Below, piece after piece: positions 1,483 to 62,988 of a stretch of DNA of 64,000 bases (within the stretch, counting starts at the first letter, position 1; every line of letters begins with the position of its first letter). The stretch covers positions 118,683-182,682 of the forward strand of contig JAPLXS010000006.1 in assembly GCA_026395965.1 (NCBI GenBank), written 5' to 3'. Under the pieces are notes generated by a model. It searched no databases. It saw nothing but the letters and a program-made list of their open reading frames with translations, and was not told where the DNA came from. The DNA is from Candidatus Nomurabacteria bacterium. Its GTDB lineage: Bacteria > Patescibacteriota > Minisyncoccia > Phycocordibacterales > UBA9973. Made by a program: the position numbers and the translations under genes.

Positions 1483-1518
1483 TACGGTTTTTAGACGTCC
1501 AACGTCTAAAAACCGTAA
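1483..1518. repeat. perfect palindrome ttacggtttttagacgtccaacgtctaaaaaccgtaa (AGACGT-CCA-ACGTCT core)
   Basis: Self-complementary 17-bp arms. The core is related to the TAGACGTCCGACA palindromes elsewhere in the window. Confidence 0.7.
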
Positions 1519-1587
1519 ATTCTTTGACTTATATCTATATTTATGTTATGTTATTGAAAATATTGACCAATTTAAAAAATTTTAAAG

Positions 1588-2896: not shown

Positions 2897-3379
2897 ATGC
2901 TAGAATCAAAAAAACAACGTTCTCTTAAATACAAAATCATGGAAAATAAAAATGAGGTTCTATATATTGACCGCTCAATACCCTTTGACCTAGAAGAATT
3001 TATAGGCCATGGATGGTCTATAGTTGACCAAGACAACAAGGCCTTAGATATAAGTAGTATACTTATATCAGAGATTATACTAGAAAAAATATTTGGCGAA
3101 AAAAATGAAGACAAGATTAAATACTTAAATGAGCAAAACTATGTAGAGTTAGACCCTAAGGTACTTGAAGCATTCTGGAATAATCAAGAATTAATTCCCG
3201 AGGAATGGAAAAAAGAATCATATGTTTTTTTCGGTGCACTTGTTTTTAAAAACTGCTACGAAGGAGAACATCATTTTGTATTGTGCTTGTATTGGCGATT
3301 CAACCAATGGCATTGGGGATGCTACGATATTAGTCATGATTTTGTAAAGGCTAGCCCTTGTGCGATTATGCATATCTAA
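2897..3379 (+). CDS. hypothetical protein (160 aa)
   Basis: ORF with a terminator hairpin at 3407-3440. No recognisable domain. Confidence 0.35.
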   Translation: MLESKKQRSLKYKIMENKNEVLYIDRSIPFDLEEFIGHGWSIVDQDNKALDISSILISEIILEKIFGEKNEDKIKYLNEQNYVELDPKVLEAFWNNQELIPEEWKKESYVFFGALVFKNCYEGEHHFVLCLYWRFNQWHWGCYDISHDFVKASPCAIMHI

Positions 3380-4695: not shown

Positions 4696-4870
4696 AATGT
4701 TTCCATCTTTATAATATTTAAGGATATATTTGTTTGTATTATAAGACAGATAGGCGATTGTTGTCAATATCTAGTCGAATTTTATAAATTCCTAATCTGT
4801 ACTATTGATTCATTAGAATCATCTATAAGGATAATTTCCTCCCTCACCTCATATATGTTAAAATACGCTT

Positions 4871-6166
4871 ATGAAAAATAGAGCATGGGTTATAGTACTG
4901 GGTGATTTTATTTCATTTATAACAGCATTTATACTCCTTATATTAATCCGTTTTAAGAAAGCAGACTATCTTTCTGCTGTAAATAGCCATACGGTACCAT
5001 TTATAATACTCTATATATCTTGGGTTCTTATTTTCTATATATTTGGGCTCTATGACCTGCTCAACATAAAGCCAACTATTCCATATTTCAATAGATGGAT
5101 ACTAGCTCTTATTTCCTCTTTTACTATGGGTTTGTTATTTTTCTACTTTGTGCCGATCTTTGGTATCAGCCCAAAACTAAATCTCGTAATCCAAGTTGTA
5201 GGGTTTGGATTTTTTTCATTTTTATTGAGAAGAATGGCATACAATCTCTTTGCTAGAGCTATAACTCAACCTGCTATACTTGTCGGTGATTCATCGTATC
5301 TTGCTGAATTAGAGAAAACTATTGCATCCAATCCACAAATAGGTCTCCATGCAATCAACCACTTTAAAACTATCGGTGAAGTAAATCTAAATTTGAAAAA
5401 TATAAAAAATCTTGTCATTATTTTAGATAAAAATATTGAGAATCAAAACCAAAACATTTTAGAATTTTACAAAGAAAATATAGAGATTATTGATACCGCA
5501 AAAGCTTACGAAAAATATTTATATAAAATACCAGTAGAATACATAGATGTATCTTTTATTGTTGAAAATATTAATACAAAAAAAGATGTTTTATACTCAT
5601 TCATAACTTTTTTACTAAATATAGTATTTTCTATAACAATACTTATACTTACTCTTCCTTTCGTGATTATATCTGCCATCTTTATATATCTATATGATTA
5701 CGGTCCAGTATTTTATACACAAAAAAGGGTTGGAATAAATGGTAAAATATTTAAACTCTACAAACTTCGCTCTATGATCACAGACTCTGAAAAAGACGGC
5801 GCAAAGTGGTCCACAGGTACATCGGATACACGTGTGACTCCTGTAGGTAAAATACTTCGTAAGCTACATATAGATGAACTCCCACAAATGATAAATATTC
5901 TAAAAGGTGACCTATCTCTAGTTGGTCCTCGTCCTGAGAGACCAGAATTTGTAAACATACTTGGAAATGATATCCCCTACTACACACTACGCCATATCAT
6001 ACGTCCAGGATTTACTGGCTGGGCTCAGATAAAGTACAGATATGCTGGTTCAACAAAAGATTCCAAAGAAAAGTTTGAATATGATTTGTATTACATTAAA
6101 AATAGAAATATCTTTATGGATTTTGGGATTATAATGAGAACAATACAAATAATATTTACACATTAA
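4871..6166 (+). CDS. polyprenyl-phosphate glycosyl-1-phosphate transferase (WbaP/WsaP-like initiating sugar transferase)
   Basis: N-terminal TM helices and a C-terminal bacterial sugar-transferase domain (KLRSM...DELPQMINILKGDLSLVGPRPERPEF). Confidence 0.85.
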   Translation: MKNRAWVIVLGDFISFITAFILLILIRFKKADYLSAVNSHTVPFIILYISWVLIFYIFGLYDLLNIKPTIPYFNRWILALISSFTMGLLFFYFVPIFGISPKLNLVIQVVGFGFFSFLLRRMAYNLFARAITQPAILVGDSSYLAELEKTIASNPQIGLHAINHFKTIGEVNLNLKNIKNLVIILDKNIENQNQNILEFYKENIEIIDTAKAYEKYLYKIPVEYIDVSFIVENINTKKDVLYSFITFLLNIVFSITILILTLPFVIISAIFIYLYDYGPVFYTQKRVGINGKIFKLYKLRSMITDSEKDGAKWSTGTSDTRVTPVGKILRKLHIDELPQMINILKGDLSLVGPRPERPEFVNILGNDIPYYTLRHIIRPGFTGWAQIKYRYAGSTKDSKEKFEYDLYYIKNRNIFMDFGIIMRTIQIIFTH

Positions 6167-6224: not shown

Positions 6225-6350
6225 ACAGTATTGACACTATGTGCGATAAAAGTATATACTTCATTAGTAACTAGCCATCAGGGACAAATTCCTCTTAGGA
6301 AAAGCGAAAGCTACCTGTATGCGCTGACCGCCCCGTAAGGGGCGGTTTTC
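6225..6350 (+). ncRNA. candidate small RNA / structured 3' UTR
   Basis: Promoter-like TTGACA-17nt-ATATAC at 6231-6259. About 85 nt downstream there is a strong terminator (accgccccgtaaggggcggttttctttt) at 6324-6350. No ORF. Confidence 0.3.
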
Positions 6351-20158: not shown

Positions 20159-21922
20159 CTAGAAACTAGCTGTAAGTGTAAGTGCTGTAAGACCATTAGT
20201 TATAGATGCGCCAGTTGGAGTTCCTGAAGCTGTTCCATAATTGATTGCAGTAGCAGCAATTGTTGTTGTTGAATTTGATGCACCACGTAGAGCAGCTGCA
20301 AATGTAAATGTGCGAGCTGAACTTGCTGGTATTACATATGAAACGCCTGCTGTATCACCTACCATTGTTGATGGTGCTGATGCAGTTACGTTTGATAATG
20401 CTGTAGCATAACCTGTACCAGAAACTGTCATAAATGTAAGTGGTGTAGCACTTACATACAAGTCGTTGTTACTGTTGTTTGTTAGAGTAAATACATATGT
20501 TGCATTGTATCCAACTGTACTATTACCTTGTACAATTGCTGCACCTAGGGTTGCTGAAGAAGCACTTAGGGCAACTGCGTTTGTAGTTAGAGTAAGAGTA
20601 CTTGCTGTACGAGTACCAGCTGTTAATGTTGCTGTACCATAGTTAGCATCTGTTACAGTAATATTAGCTGCATCAAATGATGTAGCAACTGAAGCAGATC
20701 CTGGAAGTGCCTTTATATCAGCTTTGATAGTAAAGTCTGTCCAAACATCTAATGCTAAAGGAACAGTTAAGTTACTAAATGTAACAACACCTGTACTTGT
20801 ATTTAATGATCCACCTGCAACATCTGTTCCATTTACTATTAATCTAAAATTACTGAAGTCTGTTTTAGTTCCAGCAATTAAAGTAACTGGTAATGTGTTT
20901 AGTGTTGCTGTGTTGTTTGATGCCTTAATACTGAACACACCTAGAGTAGCACCAGCTGTTGTTTGTGTAAGAGAAACAATTTGCTGGCCTGCTAATGGTG
21001 ATGAAGGACTAAGTCTTGAGTATATAACTGCTACAGAACCTGTTGCAGTTAATGTTACTGTATTTTCTCCTGCTGGTGATACTGGATTAATAGTATCAAA
21101 GTAACCAACTTCACTTGTTGTTCTTATTCCATTCAAAGTAGTAGTAACATTTTGAGTTGTTATAATCTTGTCTGTTGCAGAAAGAACTGATGCACTAACA
21201 GCTAAGTCAGGATTTGTTCCTGGAGTAACTGTGTAGTTAAGACCATCAAATCTTACTAGATAGTCAGAACCAACTGTTATTTCTGTTGAATCAGCTGAAC
21301 TTGAAAGAGTCTTTGTTGCAAGAACTTTTCCACTGTTGTCATGAAGTGTAACTGTACTGAAGAACAACCATGGTCTTACAGAGAAGTGTGCATCAACACG
21401 AGAAACCTTAACTGGACCTGCTGTTGCTTGTAATCTTACTGCTGCTACATCTTTAGTTTCACCTTTCTTAATTGAAATAAGAGAAGCAACATATGATGAA
21501 GTTGAAGCTGTAAGTGATCCATCTGTATTACCTGTAGCTACTGTTGTAGCTGTAGTTCCACATGATGCACCTGTTGTTGAACTAAACAAAGCACCTGCTG
21601 TACATCCTGCTACTGTTGTAGTAGTTGTTGTAGTTGTAGTTGTAGTTGTAGTTGAACCTGCGTTTGCTTTAGCCATTGAAGCTTTACCAAACATTCCATC
21701 AGCTGTTAAACCGTTTGCTGCTTGCCAAACTTTAACTTTAGCTGCTGTCATTTTACCGAAAGAACCGTCTGCTGGTGAACCTACAAGAGTCTGAAGAGTC
21801 TTTACGTATTCACCTTTACTACCAACCTTTAGGGTCATAGTACCGAAATCATAAGAAGCGAATGCTGTTGTTGTAACAAGAGCAAATGCAACCAATGTTC
21901 CTACTAAATATTTTTTGAACAT
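20159..21922 (-). CDS. secreted Thr/Ser-rich surface protein with two N-terminal peptidoglycan-binding (PG_binding_1) domains
   Basis: Signal peptide. Two LKVGSKGEYVKTLQ...DGxFG modules, a poly-Thr linker (T13), then ~450 aa rich in T/S/A/G/V. Confidence 0.6.
   Translation of the reverse strand: MFKKYLVGTLVAFALVTTTAFASYDFGTMTLKVGSKGEYVKTLQTLVGSPADGSFGKMTAAKVKVWQAANGLTADGMFGKASMAKANAGSTTTTTTTTTTTTTVAGCTAGALFSSTTGASCGTTATTVATGNTDGSLTASTSSYVASLISIKKGETKDVAAVRLQATAGPVKVSRVDAHFSVRPWLFFSTVTLHDNSGKVLATKTLSSSADSTEITVGSDYLVRFDGLNYTVTPGTNPDLAVSASVLSATDKIITTQNVTTTLNGIRTTSEVGYFDTINPVSPAGENTVTLTATGSVAVIYSRLSPSSPLAGQQIVSLTQTTAGATLGVFSIKASNNTATLNTLPVTLIAGTKTDFSNFRLIVNGTDVAGGSLNTSTGVVTFSNLTVPLALDVWTDFTIKADIKALPGSASVATSFDAANITVTDANYGTATLTAGTRTASTLTLTTNAVALSASSATLGAAIVQGNSTVGYNATYVFTLTNNSNNDLYVSATPLTFMTVSGTGYATALSNVTASAPSTMVGDTAGVSYVIPASSARTFTFAAALRGASNSTTTIAATAINYGTASGTPTGASITNGLTALTLTASF
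21612..21656. repeat. (GTTGTA)n hexanucleotide microsatellite encoding the poly-Thr linker
   Basis: gttgtagtagttgttgtagttgtagttgtagttgtagttg inside 20159..21922. Confidence 0.7.
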
Positions 21923-22026
21923 AATGTTTTTATAATTGTATACACGTTTAAATTAATTTCGACTAATCTCTGGGTACGACTAATAATAATGTACTCAAAG
22001 AAAAAAATTAATGTGTGTGTATTTAA

Positions 22027-22106
22027 TAAGAATTAAGAATTAGGAATTAATAATTAGGAATTGATAAACAACTCAGAATTAATAATTAATAAAAATTAAT
22101 AATTAT
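22027..22106. repeat. (GAATTAR)n heptanucleotide tandem array
   Basis: taagaattaagaattaggaattaataattaggaattga...aattaataattaataaaaattaataatta. Confidence 0.7.
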
Positions 22107-22432
22107 CTTTTACTAATCTCTAAATAACAGAACTCTAGACCATGACCTCTTTCTCTATCAAAAAAAGTTGCAATGGTTTTAAAGAAATAATATTTAGAAT
22201 TGTAAACTAAACTAAATAACTCTGCCTGTCCTTACCCTTCTAAAGAATTTCTTACGAAAGTAAAGAAAAGACGAGACAAGCATATCTGCCTTGTCGACAG
22301 GGCCGATACCACATCTTGAATCGAGTATCGATATAGATTATTCTTTTGCGCTCCTCTATCAAAGCAGCACGAGAATAAAAAATAAAAACAAAAGAAACAA
22401 AACGGATCTGACCAGAGAGAACTCAATTGAGA

Positions 22433-22458
22433 AATTAAGAATTAGGAATTAGGAATCC
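22433..22458. repeat. (GAATTAR)n heptanucleotide array
   Basis: aattaagaattaggaattaggaatcc. Confidence 0.7.
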
Positions 22459-22697
22459 ACAAAGGACCACTAATTAAGAATTCAAAATAAATAATTCCGG
22501 CTACAAGCTATTTGGTATTAACAACTTATAGTATTAAATTTTCAATGATCTTCTCTTCCCAAATGTACTTATATAAAACAAGAACATAGGGATACTATAT
22601 ACTACCACATCTAGCAATAAAATACCAGGGGTAATACACATAAATATTATATATGGAGTCATTTAAATATGCAACATATATGACCCAATTACGGATT

Positions 22698-22724
22698 AAA
22701 AATTAGGAATTAAGAATTAGAAAT
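22698..22724. repeat. (GAATTAR)n heptanucleotide array
   Basis: aaattaggaattaagaattagaaatac. Confidence 0.7.
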
Positions 22725-22826: not shown

Positions 22827-22866
22827 AAACACTCCCCAGAAAGCTCCGCTTTCTGGGGAGTGTTTT
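22827..22866 (-). terminator. rho-independent terminator of the 22889..23743 gene
   Basis: aaaacactccccagaaagc-ggagctttctggggagtgtttt with a T-tract on the minus strand. Confidence 0.65.
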
Positions 22867-22870
22867 AATG

Positions 22871-22901
22871 ATTCATAATTCATAATTTTTAATTCGTAAT
22901 T
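22871..22901. repeat. heptanucleotide array (AATTAYG variants) overlapping the stop codon of the 22889..23743 gene
   Basis: Minus strand reads aattacgaattaaaaattatgaattatgaatc. The TAA stop and last codons (IITN*) lie inside the array. Confidence 0.6.
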
Positions 22902-23743
22902 ATACTATACCTGCTCCATCTTTTTGCACCTGTCTTTTTGATGTGTCCTTTAGAGATGAGGGTGTTTAATTCGCGTTGAATTGTCTTTTCTGAACAGTTC
23001 GTGAATGCCAGTGATATGTCTTTTATTGAAATTCCCTCTTCACCGATTTGTATGCCTTTCTTATCTTTTATCATGCTCAATATTTTTGCTGTTCGGTCAT
23101 TTCTGTCTGATAGATTTGTCTCATAAGATTTTATTTTTTGAGGATAAGAAAGCGATAAAGGACTCTTGCGATTTGTAAGAGACATTCCATCTAATGATGT
23201 CCCTTTGTTGTTTGAAAATTGCTCTTTATTGTGATTAAAACTATCTACATTTCCGAGAGATATTTCGCTCTCATTTTCCTCTGGCAGATGAAACATTTTG
23301 TCGTCCAATTTGAAAGTAAAATGTTTGTCTTTCTCTTGGCTTGATTTCAAATCAGAAGCTAGTATAGAGAACTCTTTTTTTAGTATTGAAGTATTCATCT
23401 CTGAGATGAAACCTATAGTATGAGCTATCTCTATAAAAGAAAGTAGTTCGTATATGTGAGTTAGTGATACAGAAATATAAGAATGCTTTTCTACTGGAGA
23501 CAATGTAGAGAGCTTATATATATCGGACAGAAGTTCTACACCTAGTAAACGAAGCTTCCCCTTTAGTGCATCGTCTGTGTCCATGCAATCAGAAACCAAA
23601 TACAAAGCTGTCACTAGCTTCTCTGTCTTTTTGTTTGCAAAATGAGAAACATGTATATTTGACAATGATTTTATATCAGAGACATCAGAATGTCCGTATG
23701 TATTTAAGCTTGTCTTTTGTATGTCTTTTTGATTATTTATCAT
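22889..23743 (-). CDS. hypothetical protein with C-terminal winged-helix-like segment
   Basis: The C-terminus (ISIKDISLAFTNCSEKTIQRELNTLISKGHIKKTGAKRWSRYSI) looks like a wHTH. The rest has no recognisable domain. Confidence 0.35.
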   Translation of the reverse strand: MINNQKDIQKTSLNTYGHSDVSDIKSLSNIHVSHFANKKTEKLVTALYLVSDCMDTDDALKGKLRLLGVELLSDIYKLSTLSPVEKHSYISVSLTHIYELLSFIEIAHTIGFISEMNTSILKKEFSILASDLKSSQEKDKHFTFKLDDKMFHLPEENESEISLGNVDSFNHNKEQFSNNKGTSLDGMSLTNRKSPLSLSYPQKIKSYETNLSDRNDRTAKILSMIKDKKGIQIGEEGISIKDISLAFTNCSEKTIQRELNTLISKGHIKKTGAKRWSRYSIITN

Positions 23744-23839: not shown

Positions 23840-23875
23840 AAATTAATAATTAGGAATTAGGAATTAAGAATTGAA
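23840..23875. repeat. (GAATTAR)n heptanucleotide array
   Basis: aaattaataattaggaattaggaattaagaattgaa. Confidence 0.7.
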
Positions 23876-23936
23876 TACAGAAATAATTATAAAATAATTG
23901 AAAATTTGGAATTTTAAATACGAAACACAGGTTCAT

Positions 23937-23986
23937 TTTTTAGACGTCGGATATCTATTAGTAAACAGGTGTCCGACGTCTAAAAT
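23937..23986. repeat. TAGACGTCCGACA-family long palindrome
   Basis: tttagacgtcgga-tatctattagtaaacaggtg-tccgacgtctaaa. Confidence 0.7.
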
Positions 23987-24000
23987 TGAGCTCCTGATCA

Positions 24001-24033
24001 CATTCTTAATTGTTAATTCTTAATTTGTAATTG
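24001..24033. repeat. (GAATTAR)n heptanucleotide array (reverse orientation)
   Basis: cattcttaattgttaattcttaatttgtaattg. Confidence 0.65.
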
Positions 24034-24280
24034 ACCTTAAGTGTGGATAACTTTTACATTAATATAATCCCTAGATGAACAACACCCGAAGCCAATTTTG
24101 ATGTTGGAAGTCTTAAGATTTTAATAGATGGATATGCTATAATGCATACACAAATTGTGATCCAAATTGAGATGGTTTTAAGACAAATTACTGAGTGTTT
24201 TTTAGATTACTAAATTAAATATTATTAACTTAATTAACAAAAGATAGGACCCCACTTACCGAGGAAATATCCCAAGAGAA

Positions 24281-26518
24281 ATGGCAAAAAAAGATAAAGA
24301 AAAAGAAGATGTTGAGAGCACATCCAAACAAGGAAATAGGAAGAATAAAAATATTAAGAAAGTAGAAATGAGAGAAGAGATTCGCATGAGTATTTGGGGT
24401 ATAACTTTTATGTTTCTCGGTCTTTTGATAACCTTATCTGTTTTCAAAATGGCTGGTCCTGTGGGCGATTTTATTTACGATAAATTGAGTGCATTCTTTG
24501 GGCTTGGGTACTTTCTCCTACCTGTACTTCTAGTAGTGATAGGATATTCTTTTTTGAAAAAAGAAAGACCACAAGTTGCAAAAATTCACGCTATCTTTGG
24601 TCTCGCTACACTACTCTCTACACTAGGAATAATGGACCTCGCAGCCAATGGAAAAGAGGCATCGGTCAATATAACTTTTGGTGGGTATCTAGGTAGTATT
24701 GTCGCATGGCCATTCTTGAAACTTTTCGGAGTATATGCAGGGATACTTTTGCTTGGAGCAATACTCATTACCTCTCTTATTATCTTGTGTGACGAGAGAC
24801 CAAACTTGGTAGAACTATTTAAAAAGTTTTGGAGTTTTTTGAAGAGAGATATTCGTACACCAAAAATCGATAATGAAGAAGGGGAAGAAAATTACGAATT
24901 AGAAGAAAATAAAATAGAGACAAAAGAATCAGCAGTAAAAACAAATGTAGTAGAATACGATGAGAACCCCGTAGAAGAAAAACAAGAAGGTCGCGCTTCA
25001 AAGGACACTGCGCGACATGATTCTGCAGAATCAGATATGAAGGTAAAGAAATTTACTACTGACTACATACCTCCCCCAATGTCTCTCTTAGAAAAAGATA
25101 AGGGTAAGCCAAACACAGGAGACATGAAAGGCAACATGAATATAATACAGAGAACTCTCCTCACCTTCGGTGTATCCGTAGAAATGGATGAAGTAACTGT
25201 CGGACCAACTGTTACTCGCTACGCAATGAAACCTGCACAAGGAGTAAAACTCTCACGCATAGTAGGACTTCAAAATGAACTAGCACTAGCACTCTCTGCA
25301 CGTACTATACGTATCGAAGCACCTATCCCTGGAAAGTCACTTGTGGGTATCGAAATACCAAACAAAGTAAAATCTATGGTTGGACTCGCTACACTTCTAT
25401 CTGATGATTTATTCCAAAACTCTGCAAAGCCACTCACTGTCGCACTCGGACGTGGACTATCTGGAAAGTCAGTATTTGGAAACATAGCAAAAATGCCACA
25501 CTTGCTAGTAGCAGGAACAACTGGTTCTGGTAAGTCTGTAACAATACACTCAATCATCACTTCCCTACTCTACAAAAATGGACCAGAAGATTTGAGACTA
25601 ATACTAGTGGATCCAAAAAGAGTAGAACTAACTTTGTATAACAAAATCCCCCACTTACTCACTCCAGTTATTACTGACCCAAAGAAAACAATCTTGGCTC
25701 TAAAGTGGGCAGCAAAAGAAATGGATAGACGCTACGACTTACTCCAAGCTCATTCTGTGCAAAATATAGAATCATACCAATCTAATGTTTATGGAAAAGC
25801 AAAGAAAGATGAGGTTATAGAAAAACTCCCTTATATAGTTATCTTTATCGATGAACTTGCAGATATAATGCAGTCATACCCTAGAGAGCTAGAAAGTGCT
25901 ATCGTTCGTCTTGCTCAGATGTCTCGTGCTGTGGGAATACACTTAATACTATCTACACAGAGACCATCTGTGAATGTCATCACAGGACTAATCAAGGCCA
26001 ATATTCCTACTCGTGTAGCTCTACAGGTGTCATCACAGATAGACTCCCGAACTATTTTAGACCATGGTGGTGCCGAACTACTAGGTGCTGGAGACATGCT
26101 CTACTCTTGTGCAGAAACTCCTCACCCAGAGAGAATACAGAGTGCATTTATATCTGAAGAAGAAGTTAAAAAAGTGGTAGAATACTTACGTAAGGCTTAT
26201 ATAGATGAAATACCTAGTACAATAGAACTATCTGGAAGTATAGATAAAGGAGGAAACAATCTTTTCAATGACAGTATCGGTGGAGATGATGGAGATGATG
26301 ACCTATATGAAGATGCAAGAATGACAGTTATAGAGGCAGGCAAAGCATCTACTTCATACCTACAGAGAAAACTTGGTATCGGATACGCTCGCGCAGCTAA
26401 ACTCATAGATATGCTAGAAGAACGTCATGTAATAGGAGCTGGTAATGGAGCAAAACCAAGAGATGTACTAGAAAAAGGAGTGAATAATACAGATGATATG
26501 ATTATGGGTAAGGAATAA
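24281..26518 (+). CDS. ftsK: DNA translocase FtsK/SpoIIIE
   Basis: N-terminal TM helices, Walker A LLVAGTTGSGKS, and a C-terminal gamma wHTH domain (YLQRKLGIGYARAAKLIDMLEE). Confidence 0.9.
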   Translation: MAKKDKEKEDVESTSKQGNRKNKNIKKVEMREEIRMSIWGITFMFLGLLITLSVFKMAGPVGDFIYDKLSAFFGLGYFLLPVLLVVIGYSFLKKERPQVAKIHAIFGLATLLSTLGIMDLAANGKEASVNITFGGYLGSIVAWPFLKLFGVYAGILLLGAILITSLIILCDERPNLVELFKKFWSFLKRDIRTPKIDNEEGEENYELEENKIETKESAVKTNVVEYDENPVEEKQEGRASKDTARHDSAESDMKVKKFTTDYIPPPMSLLEKDKGKPNTGDMKGNMNIIQRTLLTFGVSVEMDEVTVGPTVTRYAMKPAQGVKLSRIVGLQNELALALSARTIRIEAPIPGKSLVGIEIPNKVKSMVGLATLLSDDLFQNSAKPLTVALGRGLSGKSVFGNIAKMPHLLVAGTTGSGKSVTIHSIITSLLYKNGPEDLRLILVDPKRVELTLYNKIPHLLTPVITDPKKTILALKWAAKEMDRRYDLLQAHSVQNIESYQSNVYGKAKKDEVIEKLPYIVIFIDELADIMQSYPRELESAIVRLAQMSRAVGIHLILSTQRPSVNVITGLIKANIPTRVALQVSSQIDSRTILDHGGAELLGAGDMLYSCAETPHPERIQSAFISEEEVKKVVEYLRKAYIDEIPSTIELSGSIDKGGNNLFNDSIGGDDGDDDLYEDARMTVIEAGKASTSYLQRKLGIGYARAAKLIDMLEERHVIGAGNGAKPRDVLEKGVNNTDDMIMGKE

Positions 26519-26582
26519 TTAGGAATTAGGAATTTAGAAACAATAAGAGGGGTAAAAAATTAGGAATTAAAATACAATAAGA
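26515..26582. repeat. two (GAATTAR)n heptanucleotide arrays abutting the ftsK stop
   Basis: aataattaggaattaggaatttag ... aaattaggaattaaaatac. The ftsK TAA stop lies at the array edge. Confidence 0.65.
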
Positions 26583-26596
26583 ATACAGATACAATT

Positions 26597-26992
26597 ATGC
26601 AATTAAAAACTATAAAAAATAAAAATATGAAATGGTGGCTAGGAACAATATCCTGCGTAACACTATTTTCTATTATTATGATTTTTGGTTATGAAAAAAT
26701 GTTCTTTATGTTCCATGGAGTAAAAATAGAAGCTAGTATGGTACAAAGTGTTGACTCTCCCCTAACGATAGTGTCTGGCAAAGCAGAGAAAGCTATATAC
26801 TTATCTCTAAACGGTAGAGAAATATTTATAGATAAAAAAGGAAACTTTTCTGAATCGATAGCAGTGCTTCCTGGATTTTCTGTAATCACACTTAGCGCTG
26901 AAGATAAATTTGGAAAGACCGCAGAGAAAAAGTTTGAAATGGTTAAAGAAGAAAGTGTGCCAGCAGTAGCATTAGCAGCAACTAGTAACTAG
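26597..26992 (+). CDS. hypothetical membrane-anchored protein (131 aa)
   Basis: Single N-terminal TM helix. No recognisable domain. Confidence 0.3.
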   Translation: MQLKTIKNKNMKWWLGTISCVTLFSIIMIFGYEKMFFMFHGVKIEASMVQSVDSPLTIVSGKAEKAIYLSLNGREIFIDKKGNFSESIAVLPGFSVITLSAEDKFGKTAEKKFEMVKEESVPAVALAATSN

Positions 26993-27000
26993 AAATAAGG

Positions 27001-27130
27001 AAACTAAATTTAAATTTAAAATATATCTTTCCAAAGGGTACGAAAATTTTTTACTAAAAATTTTCTGAAGTGTTCGTTTCGACAAACTCACAACCCCCTT
27101 TGATAAGAATATTTTAAATTTAAATTTAGT
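27001..27130. repeat. ~130-bp element bounded by perfect 23-bp inverted repeats (aactaaatttaaatttaaaatat)
   Basis: 27001-27023 is the exact reverse complement of 27108-27130. The core contains a nested palindrome gaaaatttttTACTaaaaattttc. It lies immediately upstream of recA. Confidence 0.65.
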
Positions 27131-27159
27131 TAGTAATTTATTAATTAACATAATCATAT

Positions 27160-28242
27160 ATGATAAAAAAAGCAAAAAAGGCTCCAAAAGAAACAGGTGG
27201 TGCAATAGAAGATACAATTAGATCAATCCAAACAAAGTTTGGAGAAGGTGCAATTATGAAACTTGGAGATGCTCCAAAGGTAGACATAGATGTCATTCCT
27301 ACTGGCTCAATAGGGCTAGATATGGCTCTAGGAGTAGGTGGAGTACCAAGAGGCCGTATGATAGAAATATATGGACCGGAATCATCTGGTAAGACTACCC
27401 TAGCACTACACATAGTAGCTGAAGCTCAAAAGAAAGGTGGTGTATGTGCTTATATAGATGCTGAACACGCAATGGATCCAGACTATGCTGCTAAACTAGG
27501 GGTAAACATAAAAGACCTGCTTATATCTCAACCAGACAATGGTGAACAAGGATTAGAGATTACAGAGAGTCTTATTCGCTCTGGCAAGATAGATGTTATC
27601 GTTATCGACTCAGTAGCAGCATTAACACCCAAAGATGAAATAGAGGGAGATATGGGTCAATCACACGTAGGTAAACAAGCACGTCTAATGTCTCAAGCTC
27701 TTAGAAAGCTTACTGCTATAGTTGCCCACTCAAAAACTGTAGTTATATTTATCAACCAGATTCGTATGCAAATAGGAGTCATGTTTGGTAATCCTGAAAC
27801 AACTCCAGGAGGAAAGGCATTGAAGTTTTATACTACTATCCGTCTAGATATTCGCCGTATTGCTCAGATAAAAAAAGGTGAAGAAGTAGTAGGAAGTAGA
27901 ACAAGAGTAAAAGTGGTAAAAAATAAAGTCGCTGCCCCATTTAAACAGACAGAGTTTGATATACTTTACGGTGAAGGAATTTCTCGAGAAGGAGAAATAA
28001 TGGCTCTAGGCGAAAAACTAGGAGTTATCAGTAAATCAAGTGGAGCTATATACACTTATCTTGGAACTGCAAAACAAAAAGAAAAAGGACCGGTAGAAGA
28101 AATAAAACTAGGTCGTGGATATGATGCAGCTCGTACTTTTCTTCGTGGAAACAAAAAACTCTCTGATGAAATACTAAAAGAAGTAAGATTGAGATTTGGA
28201 GAGATACAAAGTACTGGTGGAAGTTCAGGAGATGAAGAATAA
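27160..28242 (+). CDS. recA: recombinase RecA
   Basis: Walker [11 protein letters not shown]1/L2 loops, and full-length RecA conservation. Confidence 0.95.
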
Positions 28243-28277
28243 GAAGAATTAAGAATTTATAATTACGAATTAGGAAT
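28243..28277. repeat. heptanucleotide array immediately after the recA stop
   Basis: gaattaagaatttataattacgaattaggaatac. Confidence 0.65.
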
Positions 28278-28288
28278 ACAGAGTGGGT

Positions 28289-28322
28289 TGCCGAAGGCAA
28301 CCCACTCTGTATTTATTTGTGT
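28289..28322 (+). terminator. rho-independent terminator of recA
   Basis: acagagtgggttgccgaaggcaacccactctgtatttatttg. Confidence 0.7.
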
Positions 28323-28442
28323 CCCCTGTTTTAATTTATTAAATATCTATACTGATTCACTAAAATAACCTATGGTAAAATCAATAGATTGGCTTACATA
28401 TGCCATAGTAAATACTTAGCATTTAAAAAATATATTGAATAA

Positions 28443-28491
28443 AATAAACTAACTCACTTTACGCTATAGCGTAAAGTGAGTTAGTTTATTT
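28443..28491. repeat. palindrome with ACGCTATAGCGT core
   Basis: aataaactaactcactttacgctatagcgtaaagtgagttagtttatt. The core is shared with 54048-54095. Confidence 0.6.
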
Positions 28492-28629
28492 ATAAAATTA
28501 TTATATGCTAGAAATCTAACGATTCATAGGCTCAATGACCTCTAATATACCCATTAAATATTGCCTTGAGAATAGCAGTACATTCTGTTATAATCGACTT
28601 ATTATTAAATCGCTAGCAACTAATTATAT

Positions 28630-29208
28630 ATGCTTGAATACAGTGAAATTTGTACAAAAAAAATAATAATCTACGAGAATGAGCCATGTGAAGTTATGGA
28701 AAACCATGTAGCCCGTACTCAACAAAGAAAGCCTCAAAATCAGGTAAAGCTAAAGAGTTTACTATCTGGACGTACTTGGAATACAGTATTTCATGCATCA
28801 GACAAGGCAGAGGAAGCAGATATTAGTAAAAAAGAAGTTAAATTCTTATATGCTAGTAAAGATGAATTTTGGTTCTCAAGCCCTACTGATCCAAAAGACC
28901 GTTTTACAATTACAGCAAAAATCATTGGCGATGCATCTAAATTCTTAAAAGCCAACGAAAATGCAACTGCAGTAGTCTGGGATAATGATGGAGAGGAACA
29001 AATCATAAAGATATCTACTCCTATCAAAATGGAATTTGTAATCAAAGACTGTCCACCATCAATAAAAGGAAGTACTGCTTCAGGTGGAGGTAAACTTGCA
29101 ACACTTGAAAATGATGTAAAAGTTCAAGTTCCCTTCTTTATAGAAACTGGCGACAAGGTTATAGTAAATACTGAAACTGGTGAATATGTAGAAAGAGTAC
29201 AGAAATAA
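28630..29208 (+). CDS. efp: elongation factor P
   Basis: N-terminal KOW-like motif (QQRKPQNQVKLKSLLSG) and the C-terminal motif VPFFIETGDKVIVNTETGEYVERV. Confidence 0.8.
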   Translation: MLEYSEICTKKIIIYENEPCEVMENHVARTQQRKPQNQVKLKSLLSGRTWNTVFHASDKAEEADISKKEVKFLYASKDEFWFSSPTDPKDRFTITAKIIGDASKFLKANENATAVVWDNDGEEQIIKISTPIKMEFVIKDCPPSIKGSTASGGGKLATLENDVKVQVPFFIETGDKVIVNTETGEYVERVQK

Positions 29209-29270
29209 AAGTTAGTAACTAGGATTTAGAGACTAGGTACTAGCAAATACAAAATATACAGTTGGGATTA

Positions 29271-29308
29271 CCCATTCAAAGGCCGTCGGAAGACGGCCTT
29301 TGAAATTT
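29271..29308 (+). terminator. rho-independent terminator of efp
   Basis: ttcaaaggccgtcggaagacggcctttgaaattt. Confidence 0.7.
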
Positions 29309-29395
29309 ACAGTGATTAATCTTTCTTTACCGGTCTAAACCTATGGGTTTGATTTGGTAATCTATAAAATATTAAAATACCTGACGAAAAACAAT

Positions 29396-29425
29396 AAAAA
29401 CCACCCGGATGGGTGGTTTTTATAT
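29396..29425 (-). terminator. terminator of rplK (bidirectional hairpin)
   Basis: aaaaaccacccggatgggtggtttttat. Confidence 0.65.
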
Positions 29426-29432
29426 TTGAGTA

Positions 29433-29861
29433 TTAGTCTACTATTGTTATTCCTGCTGAGCGAGCTGAACCTTCTATTATTTTCATTGCTCCTTCTATGT
29501 TTTTAGCATTAAGGTCGGGCATTTTCTTAATAGCGATCTCTTTCACTTGAGCTTTTGTGATAGTACCTACTTTTGAAACGTTTGGTTTTCCTGAACCTTT
29601 CTCTACTCCTGCTGCTTTTAATATTAGTCCAGCAACTGGAGGAGTTTTGATTTTGATATCATAAGTTCTATCTTCAAAAACAGTAATAAGAACTCCAACT
29701 GTTTCCCCTGCCATAGCGGCAGTCATTGCGTTAAACTTTTGACAGAATTCGGCAATGTTTACTCCGGCTTGTCCTAGTGCAGGTCCAAGTGGTGGAGCTG
29801 GTGTAGCCTTTGCAGCTGCGATTTGTAATTTTACTTTCTTTATAATTTTTTTTGCTGCCAT
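29433..29861 (-). CDS. rplK: 50S ribosomal protein L11
   Basis: [36 protein letters not shown] is a canonical L11 N-terminus. Confidence 0.95.
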
Positions 29862-29869
29862 ATAAATAG

Positions 29870-29912
29870 ATAATTAAGAATTAATAATTAGGAATTAAGA
29901 ATCTAGTGATTA
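29870..29912. repeat. (GAATTAR)n heptanucleotide array in the rplK 5' leader
   Basis: taattaagaattaataattaggaattaagaatctag. Confidence 0.65.
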
Positions 29913-30116
29913 TTTTCTAGAAAATACTTAATAATTGAAGCTTAGCGTAACGGGTGTAATATAACATAATTGGGCTCATAATACAATGTAGTAAGGAGAA
30001 AGTAGCAGGTAGTAAGGATAAGTGTATTTTAATTAGTTTAAGATTTTTAAAAATCGATTAAATAGTATTAGATGCGAGGCAAAGATGGGCATTATGAATA
30101 TTTTATAATTGAATCA

Positions 30117-30163
30117 AAATAGACGTCCGACATCTGTTGGTACAGGTGTCGGACGTCTATTAA
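30117..30163. repeat. TAGACGTCCGACA-family long palindrome
   Basis: aatagacgtccgacatctg-ttggta-caggtgtcggacgtctatt. Confidence 0.7.
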
Positions 30164-30185
30164 GATGATGCTATTTTACTAATAG

Positions 30186-30311
30186 TAAAATTAAAAAAAT
30201 GGCATTAGATGCGAGGCGCAGGCGAGGATTGCGACCAAAATGTATATTGATACATTGCGGAAGCAACCGGAGCCTGCAACAAAGCAGATAATGCCATTTT
30301 TTTAATTTTAA
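30186..30311. repeat. ~125-bp element bounded by perfect 21-bp inverted repeats (aaaattaaaaaaatggcatta); right arm covers the nusG stop codon
   Basis: 30187-30207 is the reverse complement of 30289-30309. A degenerate partial copy of its left end (attagatgcgaggc) lies at 30065-30100. Confidence 0.65.
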
Positions 30312-31289: not shown

Positions 31290-31337
31290 AAATAGACGTC
31301 CGACACCTGCCGTAGCAGATGTCGGACGTCTATTTTT
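31290..31337. repeat. TAGACGTCCGACA-family long palindrome (followed by T-tract)
   Basis: aatagacgtccgacacctgc-cgtag-cagatgtcggacgtctattttt. Confidence 0.7.
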
Positions 31338-31347
31338 ATGATTTAAA

Positions 31348-43856: not shown

Positions 43857-46800
43857 TTATAAAACTGGCAGAGCAGGAGTTTCAGTAGTATCTGCTGGTG
43901 GTGGAACTACGGCAGCAGGAGTTTCTACTGCTGGTGGTACTACTTCGACAGGAGGAATATTTGTATCCCCAGGAACGACAACTGAAGCGTCAACAGGAGG
44001 TGTATCTGAAGTTGTTGTATCTGTTATTGATGTTGCACCTGTTGTTGCAGATGAGCCTGATGTTGATGGAATTAATTGTTTTAATTTAATAAGATCAGTC
44101 TTGTTGATACACTCATACGAACCATCTGGGTCAGTAAGACAAATCTCTCCAGTAAAGATGCGAGTTATCTTATTTGCCGCATTAGATAACCATGCAAAGA
44201 GACTATCTCTCCATGTATTTTGTATAGTCATATCAGCTATTCCTGTTATTTTTAGATTCATCTCTCTTATCGCTTCTACTATGATAGGTGTCATCTGCGC
44301 GTAGTACACGGACTTGTACCCTTGTGAATCTGTTGCTACGAGTTGAGGAAAATATTGCTCCAAATCTTGAGCGAGGAATCCAACTTGTTGTGGAGATGCT
44401 GGATTTTCCAACCAGTTATAAGTAACTGTTTTTACTTTCAACAAGTTATCTAAAGTATTATCAGATAGATTTATAATATTTGTCTTTAGTCTTTCATCTG
44501 AAGTACAAGCGATACCTGTACCAGTAGTGATAGTACACTGAGTAGAAGAAGAGCCATTTATACGAGTAGTATTTATCGGTCTATTGGCAGAACCTACTAT
44601 AAACTGATTTGCGGCTGTATTGGTTGCGTATGCACCTATTGCTATACTGTTTGAAAAGCTTCCTGCGCTCGTGGCATGACCAATTAGGATAGAAGTATCG
44701 GCGAATGTAGTAGTGTCATTGTATACAGCTGTATTGTTGACTGTATTATTGTATCCTGAATTTCTACCAATAAATATTGAGTTGGCAGCATTTGTAGCAT
44801 TGTACCCTGCACTACTTCCAAAGAAATTTGAGTTAATAGCGTTAGCTGCACCATACCCTGACAATAAACCAAAAAAGTTTGAGTTATTGGCTGAAGTAGC
44901 ACCACTTCCGGAATTTTTTCCAAAGAAGTTTGAATATGAAGCAGTAGTTGCACCACTTCCTGCATTCGGACCAAAGAAGTTTGAGTTAATAGCTGAGGTT
45001 GCATTATACCCTGTAGCTCCTCCAAAGAAATTAGAGTTGTTAGCTGAGGTTGCACCATATCCTGAAAGTGCCCCAAAGAAATTAGAAGAAAAAGCACTAG
45101 TTGCATTTTGTCCGGCGCCGTTTCCCATAAAGATGGTACCATTAGCAGATGCTGTACCTTGGTTGCCACCAATAAAAATTGAGTTGATCTGTCTGTTAAC
45201 AGAACCTACCATAAACTGATTTGCGGCTGTATTGGTTGCGTATGCACCTATTGCAATACTGTTTGAGTACCCTCCTGTACCAGTACCATGGCCTAGGAGG
45301 ATTGAAGTATTGGCAAAAGTAGTTACATCGTCATATACAGAAGTATTAACAACGGTATCATTTAAGCCTGAATTTGTACCTATAAATATTGAGTTGGCTG
45401 CACTAGTTGCACTATGTCCTGCATCTGTTCCAAAGAAATTTGAATAAGCAGCAGAACCAGCTTGATTTCCTGCGTTTAATCCGAAGAAGTTTGAGTTGTT
45501 AGCGGAATTAGCACTACTTCCTGCATATGATCCAAAGAAATTTGAATCATGGGCATTGACAGAACTACTTCCTGCACTTGTTCCAAAGAAGCTTGATTGA
45601 TTCGCATAAGTTGCACCATTTCCTGCATTAGAACCAAAGAAATTTGAATTCGAAGCACCGGTTGCTAGTACTCCTGTATTAACTCCAAAGAAGTTTGATG
45701 CATAAGCACCAGTAGCACCCCATCCCGCCCAATACCCGAAAAAGTTTGAGCTATTAGCATTGGTTGCATTTATTCCCGATTTTACACCAAAGAAGTTTGA
45801 GCCATAGGCACTAGTTGCTGATAATCCCGCATCAGCACCAAAGAAGTTTGATGCACTAGCACCAGTAGCAAGCTTTCCTGCATTAGAACCAAAGAAGTTT
45901 GAACTATTAGAACTGGTTGCACCATATCCTGCACTATGACCAAAGAAGTTTGAGTTATTTGCACTGGTTGCACCATTTCCTGCATCTGTACCAAAGAAGT
46001 TTGAATATGGAGCAGAACTAGCATGATACCCCGCAAGATAACCAAAGAAGTTGGAAGCATCAGAATTTGTGGCTCCGTCACCTGCATTTGATCCAAAAAA
46101 GTTTGAGCTATTAGCATTGGTTGCGCCATTTCCTGCATATGATCCAAAGAAATTTGAACCACTTGCATTGGTTGCACTATTCCCTGCATTAATTCCAAAG
46201 AAGTTTGAAACATTGGCAAGAGAAGCATTAAGTCCTGCATTAACTCCAAAGAAGTTTGAATTAGATGCGCCAGTTGCACCACTTCCTGCATCTGTTCCAA
46301 AGAAGTTTGAATTATCTGCACTAGTTGCATTTTTACCCGCACTATTACCCATAAAGATTGTATTTTGAACAGATGCTGTGCCTTGATTGCCTCCAATAAA
46401 AATTGAGTTAATTGGTCTGTTAGCAGAACCTACCATAAACTGATTGGAATATGTATTGGTTGTATACGCACCTAATGCAATACTATTTGAGTACCCTCCA
46501 GTGCTAGTACTATGACCAATGAGGATGGAGGTGTCGGCGAAGGTAGTAGTCTCATTGTACAATGCAGTATTGTTTACAAGATCATTATTACCTGAATTAG
46601 TACCTATAAATATTGAGTTGGCAGCATTGGTTGCAGAATAACCCGCAGAAGAACCAAAGAAATTTGAATTAAATGCAAAAGTAGCTGTGCTTCCTGCACT
46701 TGGTCCAAAGAAGTTTGACGCAAGGGCATTTGTTGCGTTTGTTCCCGCAGAAGAACCGAAGAAATTTGAGCTACTGGCCTCAGTTGCACCATGACCTGAA

Positions 46801-53352: not shown

Positions 53353-53943
53353 ATGAAAGAAATATACACACCCAAAACATTTTCTATCCCCGAACTAGCT
53401 GGAATAGGCAAGATAAATATAGAAGAGCACTTGAAGCTATACAAAGGATACGTAACTAATACAAATTTAATTATAAATAAAATAGAAGAATACGAAAAAG
53501 ACAGAGAAGGAAATGCATATGTACTTGGCGAACTTCACAGACGTTTTGCTTTTGAATTTGATGGTATGAGAAACCATGAGTACTATTTTGCTTCTTTTGA
53601 AGGAGGTAAAAAAGAAATAAATACAAATGGTGAACTATATAAAAGCATAGAAAAAGAATGGGGTTCATTTGAAAACTGGCTAACTCAATACAAAGGTATG
53701 GCCATGACTCGTGGGGTTGGTTGGGTTATTTTATACAATGACAAACAAACAGGTCGTCTGATGAACCAGTGGGTAGATGAACAGCACCTAGGACACCTCA
53801 CAGGGCTTTCTCCCGTACTTTGCCTAGATATGTGGGAACATGCTTATGTTTATGACTACCCTACTAGTGAGAAGAAAAAATACATAGAAGCATTTTTTGA
53901 AAATTTGAACTGGAACGCAGCAGAAAAAAATTACGAATTATAA
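53353..53943 (+). CDS. sod: superoxide dismutase (Fe/Mn family)
   Basis: DMWEHAYVYDY signature and metal-ligand His residues. Confidence 0.9.
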   Translation: MKEIYTPKTFSIPELAGIGKINIEEHLKLYKGYVTNTNLIINKIEEYEKDREGNAYVLGELHRRFAFEFDGMRNHEYYFASFEGGKKEINTNGELYKSIEKEWGSFENWLTQYKGMAMTRGVGWVILYNDKQTGRLMNQWVDEQHLGHLTGLSPVLCLDMWEHAYVYDYPTSEKKKYIEAFFENLNWNAAEKNYEL

Positions 53944-54145: not shown

Positions 54146-54176
54146 TGCGAATTTTCTAATTCCTAATTCCTAATTT
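54146..54176. repeat. (GAATTAR)n heptanucleotide array overlapping the ComEC stop codon
   Basis: Minus strand reads aaaaattaggaattaggaattagaaaattc. The final ComEC codons R-N-stop are encoded by aggaattag within the array. Confidence 0.65.
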
Positions 54177-62920: not shown

Positions 62921-62988
62921 AATTAGTAAAAAGGTCATATTTATAAAATATGACCTTTTTACTAAAACCAGACGTTGGACGTCTATTT
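62921..62988. repeat. palindromic terminator region containing short AGACGT-TGG-ACGTCT palindrome
   Basis: agtaaaaaggtcatat-ttataa-aatatgacctttttact, followed by ccagacgttggacgtctattt at 62967-62988. Confidence 0.6.

Follow-up and report, generated by a model that had tools for sequence, protein, structure and literature searches.

Polar placement of AATTARG heptanucleotide arrays at gene boundaries in a candidate phyla radiation genome and beyond

Heptanucleotides are the most over-represented of the long prokaryotic simple sequence repeats (SSRs; units of 5-11 nt); they are scattered and intergenic, and polymerase slippage has been proposed as their origin (Mrazek 2007, as related in PMC4679880 and PMC4692102). 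The cyanobacterial short tandemly repeated repetitive (STRR) heptamers of Nostoc and Calothrix fall within this class. GGGAATC in Xanthomonas and GGGGA(C/T)T in Nostoc PCC 7120 obey a placement rule in which the purine-rich strand is the coding strand at a stop codon and the non-coding strand upstream of an open reading frame (ORF) (Rehm et al. 2015, PMC4692102). These repeats typically comprise about four units, can form inverted pairs, are under-represented within ORFs and between divergent ORFs, may overlap stop codons, lie nearer to the 5' neighbouring ORF whatever its orientation, and vary in length between related genomes (PMC4692102). Rehm et al. proposed a G-quadruplex mechanism, saw no association with insertion sequences, and reported for Xanthomonas that related repeats coincide with the start or stop of a transcript more frequently than control repeats do (PMC4692102). 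TAACTGA repeats, found in marine Beggiatoaceae and in some Cyanobacteria and Bacteroidetes, contain stop codons that restrict their overlap with ORF ends to about 18 nt; they occur in ribosomal-protein operons, have no predicted RNA structure, and belong to genomes that rarely use Shine-Dalgarno sites (MacGregor 2015, PMC4679880). No function has been assigned to heptamer repeats in the literature that we searched. Here we describe arrays of another heptanucleotide, AATTARG, in a 64,000-nucleotide stretch of a Candidatus Nomurabacteria contig (the window, at its full length), and compare them with these systems.

The unit reads AATTARG on the purine-rich strand and is repeated head-to-tail, as seen in the period-7 rows of Tandem Repeats Finder (TRF) and in chains of 3-5 in-register units. 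Because the arrays both open and close with AAT, the natural register is TARGAAT. The window contains ten arrays of at least three in-register units, together with several two-unit runs (Table 1), and nine of the ten fall between 22 and 30 kb, around a gene for a winged helix-turn-helix (wHTH) protein. With up to two mismatches, AATTARGAATTARGAAT matched the window 28 times against 0.42 expected from shuffles. Chains of at least four stop codons at period 7 numbered 15; shuffling the non-coding DNA gave 2.8 (maximum 7), and the periods 4, 5, 8, 10 and 11 gave 1-5 each. Pure chance or low complexity as the source of the arrays is ruled out by these shuffle counts.

The arrays are placed with a polarity relative to their neighbouring genes. 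In four of the ten, the 5' end of the purine-rich strand lies within 10 nt of a same-strand stop codon or overlaps it, whereas 0.88 were expected when ten arrays were dropped at random and in random orientation into the non-coding DNA of the window (P = 0.007). The gaps to same-strand stops are -2, +4, -13 and -20 nt. Four other arrays lie upstream of opposite-strand start codons, at 10 nt (rplK), 97 nt (wHTH gene), 108 nt (the gene with a peptidoglycan (PG)-binding domain) and 245 nt (ftsK), always with the purine-rich strand on the non-coding strand. In eight of the ten, the nearer ORF is on the 5' side of the purine-rich strand.

This polarity was also found far outside the window. An exact scan for three AATTARG units, with one genome per species, returned at least 120 loci, and 168 arrays in 120 loci formed our cross-phylum set; all counts from this set are among the matches listed, and ORFs were called by a simple longest-ORF rule under which start positions are unreliable. 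Only one of the 168 arrays lies inside a long ORF. Where a gene 3' end is nearest, 84 arrays are sense and 19 antisense; same-strand stops lie at a median distance of 5 nt, and an overlap with the stop, at -5, -12 or -19 nt, is seen in about 30 of the 84 sense arrays. In 101 arrays the nearer ORF is the one on the 5' side and in 32 the one on the 3' side (p = 1.6e-9). Between tandem genes 56 arrays are sense and 22 antisense, between convergent genes 26 of 33 are nearer to the gene to which they are sense, and only 8 of 119 lie between divergent genes. In viral contigs (120 among the matches listed) the 5'-side ORF is again nearer, in 56 cases versus 18. Control heptamers in viral contigs have a weaker strand bias in the same direction; they are imperfect controls for this purpose because two of them have no stop codons on the reverse strand. 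We regard the sense bias as real, since antisense arrays carry an equal content of stop codons yet do not hug stops.

A first-pass annotation, made from the sequence of the window, had proposed that the arrays are placed non-randomly at gene boundaries. Our results uphold this proposal, in that placement is polar in the window, in the cross-phylum loci and in viral contigs, and partly reduce it to a trivial cause. An array of at least three perfect units closes every frame of each strand with stop codons, so that arrays cannot sit within ORFs; excluded from ORFs in a genome that is 89% coding, an array must lie near some gene boundary. The placement that we observed goes beyond what this cause alone would give. 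A lack of enrichment at gene 3' ends had been named as the observation that would speak against the proposal, and in the available data such enrichment is present.

The individual gene ends agree with what the same annotation had read from the sequence. The ftsK stop (TAA, 26516-26518) consists of a T and the AA of the first array unit, and the recA stop (TAA, 28240-28242) is separated from the first unit by four nucleotides (GAAG). The last codons and stop of the minus-strand wHTH gene (ATA ATT ACG AAT TAA) are themselves array units, as is the end of the minus-strand ComEC gene (...AAA ATT AGG AAT TAG), which lies within a three-unit array. The rplK leader holds an array at a distance of 10 nt from the ATG (29861), and there it is the non-coding strand that is purine-rich. 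We found three further period-7 gene ends that the annotation had not mentioned, those of efp, of a gene for a 131-residue protein and of the superoxide dismutase (SOD) gene. The efp TAA is in exact 7-nt phase with five TAGs, and the stop triplet is the sole part conserved between these units. Every stop-associated array in the window (ftsK, recA, wHTH, ComEC, SOD and efp) is in the sense orientation. Arrays that overlap a stop have rewritten the C-terminus of the protein: the wHTH protein of the window ends in ...KRWSRYSIITN* and its homologues in ...KRWSRYSIA*.

Period-7 ends were seen at only about seven of some 57 genes in the window, and most genes have a plain hairpin terminator straight after the stop. 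Because so few genes are involved and the arrays cluster at 22-30 kb, they do not constitute a genome-wide punctuation system. Within a coding region, we observed the stop-free units AATTACG/AATTACC in frame in the FtsK linker (...NYELPITNDEL...) of the window (24890-24903) and of two relatives, L122 (7957-7977) and L452 (5782-5802); the repeat is thus able to enter a coding region when unit position 6 is C.

Table 1. Genes, heptamer arrays and associated hairpins in the window
Feature	Position	Strand	Remarks
PG-binding-domain gene	20159-21922	-	
wHTH gene, 284 aa	22889-23743	-	Weak winged-helix Pfam match
FtsK	24281-26518	+	Pfam
131-aa small gene between ftsK and recA	ATG 26597, stop TAG 26990-26992	+	
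RecA	27160-28242	+	Pfam
Elongation factor P (EF-P, efp)	28630-29208	+	Pfam
L11 (rplK)	29433-29861	-	Pfam
Fe/Mn superoxide dismutase (SOD)	53353-53943	+	Pfam
ComEC	54156-55460	-	Pfam
Array upstream of PG-binding gene, 5-6 units	22024-22067	+	AATTAAG AATTAGG AATTAAT AATTAGG AATTGAT
Array, 3 units	22433-22456	+	Plus 2 units at 22472-22485; just 3' of conserved non-coding block
Array, 3-4 units	22694-22724	+	Non-coding region
Array at wHTH stop, 4-5 units	22871-22904	-	Overlaps stop; terminator hairpin next on minus strand
Array upstream of wHTH gene, 5 units	23841-23877	+	Left arm of inverted pair
Array upstream of ftsK, 4-5 units	24002-24035	-	Right arm of inverted pair
Array at ftsK stop, 3 units	26516-26540	+	GGAAT-AATTAGG-AATTAGG-AATTTAG; first unit overlaps stop
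Array upstream of 131-aa gene, 2 units	26558-26571	+	26 nt upstream of ATG (26597)
Array at 131-aa gene stop, 2 units	26980-26993	+	AACTAGT AACTAGA; second unit holds TAG; weak
Array at recA stop, 4 units	28243-28277	+	AATTAAG AATTTAT AATTACG AATTAGG AAT; runs into terminator hairpin
Stop chain at efp	29206-29243	+	TAA-aagt-TAG-taac-TAG-gatt-TAG-agac-TAG-gtac-TAG
Array in rplK leader, 4 units	29872-29902	+	If in leader, transcribed as CUUAAUU-type pyrimidine-rich RNA
Array at SOD stop, 2 units	53929-53943	+	AATTACG AATTATA; overlaps TAA 53941-53943
Array at ComEC stop, 3 units	54152-54178	-	Supplies ...ATT AGG AAT TAG
Hairpin after wHTH array	22832-22870	-	About -30 kcal/mol, z = -7.4
Terminator-like hairpin after recA array	28274-28314	+	19 pairs and T-rich tail; minimum free energy -35.3 kcal/mol, z = -9.6; terminator scan positive

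We examined the predicted RNA structure of the arrays and of their flanks. The arrays alone were predicted to be unstructured (minimum free energy (MFE) 0 to -5 kcal/mol, z >= 0) and did not qualify as intrinsic terminators. The spacer from ftsK to the next gene had a predicted MFE of 0, with less structure than all 200 shuffles, and the rplK leader was predicted to fold no better than its shuffles. Because the arrays are predicted to be single-stranded and strong hairpins follow directly 3' of the recA and wHTH arrays, it is likely the hairpins that form 3' ends, and the one at 28274-28314 is the probable 3'-end-forming element of recA. In the cross-phylum set, a hairpin with z < -2 is present in 24% of the 3' flanks and 7% of the 5' flanks. 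The annotation had further suggested that the arrays serve in transcript 3'-end formation; our results gave this part no support, since the arrays fold to nothing, terminator-like hairpins stand beside them, and arrays also occur in the rplK leader and between cistrons.

Two arrays, 23841 (+) and 24002 (-), pair around a hairpin resembling repetitive extragenic palindromic (REP) elements, with a predicted MFE of -62.4 kcal/mol (z = -9.5), and the same arrangement is found in L122. This REP-like family has five intergenic copies in the window (1493-1520, 23942-23985, 30121-30165, 31294-31338 and 62960-62985), mostly in terminator position; its long form is TAGACGTCCGACA ... TGTCGGACGTCTA and its short form TAGACGTCCAACGTCTA. 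An exact search of the Joint Genome Institute (JGI) metagenomes for the long form gave no match. Between the 131-aa gene and recA there is a 127-nt insert (27002-27128) with 21-nt perfect terminal inverted repeats (CTAAATTTAAATTTAAAATAT ... ATATTTTAAATTTAAATTTAG), which by its sequence looks like a miniature inverted-repeat element. The counterpart of this spacer in L452 is a five-unit heptamer array only, which fills the whole distance from the stop of the small gene to the recA start so that the ATG lies within the last unit (AATTATG).

Comparison with related genomes revealed both length variation and persistence of the arrays. L121, a 2.8-kb contig that came from a different sample, shares 99.35% identity with the window; the array at its ftsK stop is unchanged, and the one after recA is longer by a single 7-nt unit (GAATTAG) and carries one substitution. 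Upstream of the PG-binding gene, the number of units is 3 (L451), 4 (L453), 5 (L122/L450, L448 and L454) or 6 (L452), and the number and order of units differ at every array site. The arrays are shared by the window, L452, L448, L451 and L453-L455 and partly by L122, and are absent in eight other relatives; a metagenome pattern scan recovered eight loci of the array-bearing clade. Of nine relatives whose RecA is 91-93% identical, L122 is the sole one with arrays, and these are confined to three upstream sites. L452 (contig Ga0247841_10001444) is about as far from the window as L122 is (FtsK 74%, RecA 87% and L11 88% amino acid identity) and has arrays at the window's sites at the wHTH stop (four units over the stop), the ftsK stop (four units with the same T+AA overlap), the 22433 site, upstream of the PG-binding gene and in the rplK leader. 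In that leader the array lies 8 nt before the ATG, and 35 consecutive aligned bases match within a region that is 88% identical overall; L122, L124 and L126 have no array there. The 22433 site (flank GGATCTGACCAG...) bears an array also in L448 (18-52) as well as in L452 (3234-3261) and none in L122, and at the recA stop no array was found in L452, L122 or seven other relatives. The sites shared by L452 and the window would be either old and constrained or repeatedly colonised.

The arrays also differ between their two ends. Over all arrays, the 3' flank keeps more similarity to the unit than the 5' flank does (4.08 versus 3.32 of 7 positions, p = 6e-5), and in two loci from genomes of 62-67% GC (L009, 3382-3500; L088, 1959-2080) perfect AATTAGG units near the ORF are followed downstream by GATTGGG, GACTGGG and AATTGAG. 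The latter pattern suggests that arrays are youngest or best maintained at their ORF-proximal end. Where arrays decay towards their 3' end, the AAT and stop triplets disappear equally fast.

The 966-nt gene-free region between the PG-binding and wHTH genes, in which several of the arrays lie, contains two blocks (22181-22320 and 22500-22681) that are 81-89% identical to L448 and L450-L455 between diverged flanks, and a gap of 630-1170 nt is retained at this position in relatives. The blocks are candidate small RNA genes or regulatory regions; Rfam gave no match for either. The motif CTCTATCAA recurs nearby. Directly after several arrays we observed AATACAG (window 23873-23880, 26581-26587 and 28274-28280; L452 7447-7455, in the form AATTGAAATACAG-ATG), which could represent either a final unit that has degenerated or a signal in its own right.

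The distribution of the unit outside the window is broad. Among the matches listed, the genomic loci include members of Cyanobacteria, Bacteroidota, Ignavibacteria, Chloroflexi, Planctomycetes, Verrucomicrobia and Acidobacteriota, and also of Clostridia, Treponema and several groups of the candidate phyla radiation (CPR), and their local GC content ranges from 0.28 to 0.68. Sediminibacterium roseum and Rufibacter psychrotolerans are examples of cultivable species rich in arrays. At GC-rich loci the arrays form AT-rich islands in intergenic DNA, often as inverted pairs that make long hairpins. Viral contigs yielded at least 120 matches to AATTARG and 55-83 to each of three composition-matched control heptamers. 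Among the matches listed, the median GC content is 0.42-0.46 for AATTARG loci and 0.31-0.33 for controls, and loci of at least 0.55 GC make up 22 of 120 genomic and 28 of 120 viral AATTARG loci, compared with 1-3 for each control. Because AATTARG is present in GC-rich DNA from which matched heptamers are nearly absent, it is not mere AT-rich slippage noise. Across the array-bearing genomic loci (830 kb), period 7 accounts for 180 perfect arrays of three or more units and any other period for at most 11; 61 of the 180 are built of units other than AATTARG. One Chloroflexia locus (L050, 58% GC) has an inverted pair (CTTAATT)n-loop-(AATTAAG)n in each of four spacers (690-770, 3038-3112, 4797-4861 and 5621-5709), at least some of them between ribosomal-protein genes. 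These pairs would form perfect hairpins of 21-35 bp just before the Shine-Dalgarno sequence and ATG of the next gene, and such predicted hairpins are possible RNase III-type processing sites.

Several candidate roles could be set aside for the arrays. A G-quadruplex is impossible for the AATTARG unit, which has at most two consecutive G (many units, such as AATTAAG, have a single G) and thus cannot supply four tracts of at least three G. A role as Shine-Dalgarno sites (AGGA) was rejected because Shine-Dalgarno-like motifs precede 2 of 56 genes in the window, below the 10% background; the organism does not use such sites. Over the whole window, the 20 nt before start codons comprise 46% A, 33% T and 9% G, and leaders are 79% A+T. 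Promoters were likewise rejected, as the region holds 24 matches resembling sigma-70 sites where 33 were expected. Rfam searches at gathering or E-value thresholds assigned no family to the arrays or their vicinity. The window uses the standard genetic code: its long ORFs are the same with or without TGA as a stop (identical under codes 11 and 4), which excludes a recoded code with UGA as a sense codon, as in Gracilibacteria and SR1.

Taking these results together, we consider it probable, though well short of certain, that the arrays are heptanucleotide SSRs resized by slippage and tolerated, with a polarity, between ORFs, that as RNA they make an open spacer with stops in all frames, and that hairpins carry out termination. 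On this account the arrays would arise and change length by replication slippage and survive where they are harmless. As three units close all six frames, arrays persist only between ORFs or over the final six codons or fewer of a gene. The 5' end of the purine-rich strand abuts a neighbouring ORF, usually at a same-strand stop that the array itself often supplies, and otherwise 10-250 nt upstream of an opposite-strand gene. The array RNA, free of C, nearly free of start codons and predicted to be free of structure, could serve as an open spacer in which translation stops whatever the frame, placed either before a terminator hairpin (recA, wHTH) or before the start codon that follows (that of the gene after ftsK, and that of rplK), while the adjacent hairpins would make the transcript 3' ends. 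We only infer this spacer function; an open AU-rich stretch before a start codon would plausibly be useful because the organism does not use Shine-Dalgarno sites.

Several observations weigh against this account. Slippage with tolerance does not explain why AATTARG recurs across phyla and viral contigs regardless of GC content, and it leaves the bias to the sense strand unexplained, since both strands carry stops in every frame. The same sites in L452, a relative with only 74% FtsK identity, and the 35-base match before rplK suggest constraint and not mere tolerance. The content of stop codons cannot be the cause of the placement rule, because the stop-free GGGAATC arrays of Xanthomonas follow it too. 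That the stop triplet is kept no better than AAT in array tails gives no support for selection specifically on the stop triplet. Finally, close relatives manage without arrays.

We weighed four other explanations. The arrays could be a dedicated RNA punctuation in which a specific factor binds or cleaves (AAUUARG)n and thereby determines where mRNAs end, how stable they are or how far terminators are read through. Possible readers, by analogy, are a ring-shaped protein that reads UAR triplets, as HutP does with UAG-N4-UAG-N4-UAG, or an enzyme of the RNase E/G type. RNase E/G cleaves at the consensus RN/WUU (the slash marks the cut), which GA/AUU of each unit fits. Such punctuation would account for the strong sense bias at gene 3' ends, for a unit that, unlike the controls, is conserved across phyla regardless of GC, for the sites common to the window and L452, for the efp chain that keeps UAG only at 7-nt spacing, and for arrays directly 5' of terminator hairpins; the transcripts that start or stop at related Xanthomonas repeats above controls (PMC4692102) point the same way. 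Yet arrays in leaders are antisense (rplK), copy number varies freely, most genes and close relatives have no arrays, the UAR triplet is not preferentially retained in decaying tails, and no factor is known or turned up: none of ten window proteins scanned against Pfam is HutP, whose family is not known outside Bacilli. We therefore hold this explanation to be rather unlikely. A selected translational barrier, which would halt read-through or frameshifted ribosomes after a gene and thereby protect terminator folding and downstream initiation, seems to us unlikely. Three units close all six frames, arrays supply the actual stops of several genes, the efp stop is in phase with five TAGs in which the stop triplet alone is conserved, and arrays are present in GC-rich genomes, where off-frame stops are rare. 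Against this, off-frame stops are frequent anyway at 32% GC, both orientations close all frames and only the sense one hugs stops, and control heptamers that contain stops are rare in GC-rich DNA. Moreover, such a backstop is disfavoured as the cause of the placement rule, because stops are not preferentially retained in array tails and the stop-free GGGAATC arrays have the same placement.

The remaining two explanations concern DNA. If the arrays were binding sites for a protein (a nucleoid protein or the wHTH protein), enhancers resembling UP elements, or insulators, it would fit that four of them lie 10-250 nt upstream of genes, that conservation covers both the array before the PG-binding gene and its promoter region, and that nine of the ten surround the wHTH gene; AATT tracts also have a narrow minor groove. 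The main class, however, lies at stops in the sense orientation, which a double-strand binding site would not need, the arrays are spread over very many phyla and viral contigs, and the sigma-70-like matches are below expectation, so that we find this quite improbable. Of the interpretation offered by the first-pass annotation, then, the non-random and polar placement stands, the role in 3'-end formation is not supported, and its alternative, insertion of a small mobile or copy-and-paste element with a preference for AT-rich, stop-proximal sequence, is in our view highly improbable. That alternative could draw on the lineage-specific arrays at stops, with 3' flanks unrelated to those of relatives, on the rewritten wHTH C-terminus, on some 70 extra array-containing nucleotides at 22433 relative to L122, and on the AATTARG unit at every site and in viral contigs. 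It is unsupported because alignments with L122 and L452 revealed no element boundaries, terminal repeats or target duplications; the arrays have no constant length, terminal inverted repeats or associated transposase, the number and order of units differ from site to site, strains differ by single 7-nt units, and the repeats of Rehm et al. likewise lack an association with insertion sequences (PMC4692102).

A broader idea, which we put forward tentatively and with more doubt than belief, is that AATTARG, and perhaps other heptamers of the form RAYYRRG (GGGAATC, GGGGAYT and possibly TAACTGA), represent a single cis-element, of ancient origin or recruited convergently, that marks the end of a translated region and would be read by conserved machinery such as the ribosome, an RNase or RNA polymerase. 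If true, this would explain the recurrence at stops independent of GC, the sense preference and the dominance of heptamers among long repeats. Should a factor read the arrays, they would represent a widespread and unrecognised layer of gene-end punctuation; should there be none, they would be a clear case of ORF selection shaping where unstable repeats can live. In either case, arrays rewrite stop codons and C-terminal residues, which matters for the annotation of metagenome-assembled genomes.

The window itself has a GC content of about 32%. The source names of RecA homologues place the host in the CPR (Paceibacterota/Parcubacteria/Nomurabacteria), and Pfam confirmed the gene names of the first-pass annotation, including NusG. 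The rplK gene is solitary, with no rplA after it; a terminator (29394-29423, within the spacer 29209-29432) and then the convergent efp follow, and the 446-nt gap between rplK and nusG (29862-30307) holds several long hairpins. Relatives have acquired other inserts near rplK: L122 carries an IS200-like Y1 transposase together with a PDDEXK gene, and both L126 and L445 carry an ATP-grasp gene. Elsewhere in the window, Rfam matched a DUF3800-II RNA (6267-6329, plus strand; 49 bits, above the gathering score, E = 6e-7), and a 1878-aa ORF (43857-49493, minus strand) consists mostly of degenerate repeats 51 nt (17 aa) long, for which TRF also gave higher-order periods of 102 and 153 nt. No tRNA gene was found in the 64 kb.

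By their sequence features, we assign the AATTARG arrays to the known class of intergenic bacterial heptamer repeats. An excess of repeats, copy variation by whole units, exclusion from coding sequence and a patchy distribution are all found, as for long SSRs in general; the statistical survey of Mrazek, as far as it is represented in PMC4679880 and PMC4692102, describes neither the AATTARG unit nor stop-codon polarity nor independence of GC content. Our literature search on AATTAGG/AATTAAG arrays found nothing relevant. Elements of the REP/bacterial interspersed mosaic element (BIME) and miniature inverted-repeat transposable element (MITE) types resemble the arrays in that they occupy intergenic DNA, commonly near gene 3' ends or between convergent genes, and the arrays make hairpins when paired; these elements are spread by a transposase and are defined by terminal inverted repeats or by a palindrome of 20-40 nt, whereas the arrays are variable direct repeats of 7 nt.

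A likeness of possible working, and not of membership, exists with the HutP site of the Bacillus subtilis hut operon, where three UAG triplets 4 nt apart stand next to a terminator. The window has UAG or UAA at exact 7-nt spacing just 5' of a terminator hairpin at recA and the wHTH gene, and the efp chain keeps only UAG. Unlike the HutP site, the arrays accompany many unrelated genes in either orientation, and the HutP family is not known outside Bacilli.

The closer comparisons are with the two described groups of heptamers. Like the TAACTGA repeats, the window arrays are intergenic heptamers with forward stop codons and a patchy distribution across distant phyla. They differ in their unit, whose likeness to the rotated form AACTGAT is no more than an impression, and in position, since TAACTGA lies mostly a few nucleotides upstream of starts and the window arrays mainly at the stop of the upstream gene; forward arrays near starts are the two-unit run before the 131-aa gene and two arrays in L452, 0 and 13 nt before ATGs, and the rplK array is reversed. 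With the repeats of Rehm et al., AATTARG shares a unit of the form purines + AAT/GAT + pyrimidine (AGGAATT versus GGGAATC), a typical length of about four units, the placement rule, exclusion from ORFs, depletion between divergent ORFs, inverted pairs and length variation, and in GC-rich DNA AATTAGG arrays grade into GATTGGG and GACTGGG. It is distinguished by having no more than two consecutive G, a stop codon in each unit, and a CPR host of 32% GC. As the quadruplex proposal is inapplicable here and the placement rule is nonetheless unchanged, attention shifts to the period of 7, the purine-rich sense strand and the position at ORF ends. What appears to be new relative to these systems is an AT-rich unit that contains a stop codon and has no quadruplex capacity, its occurrence in a CPR (Paceibacterota) host, and the recurrence of AATTARG in many phyla and in viral contigs, including DNA of 55-68% GC.

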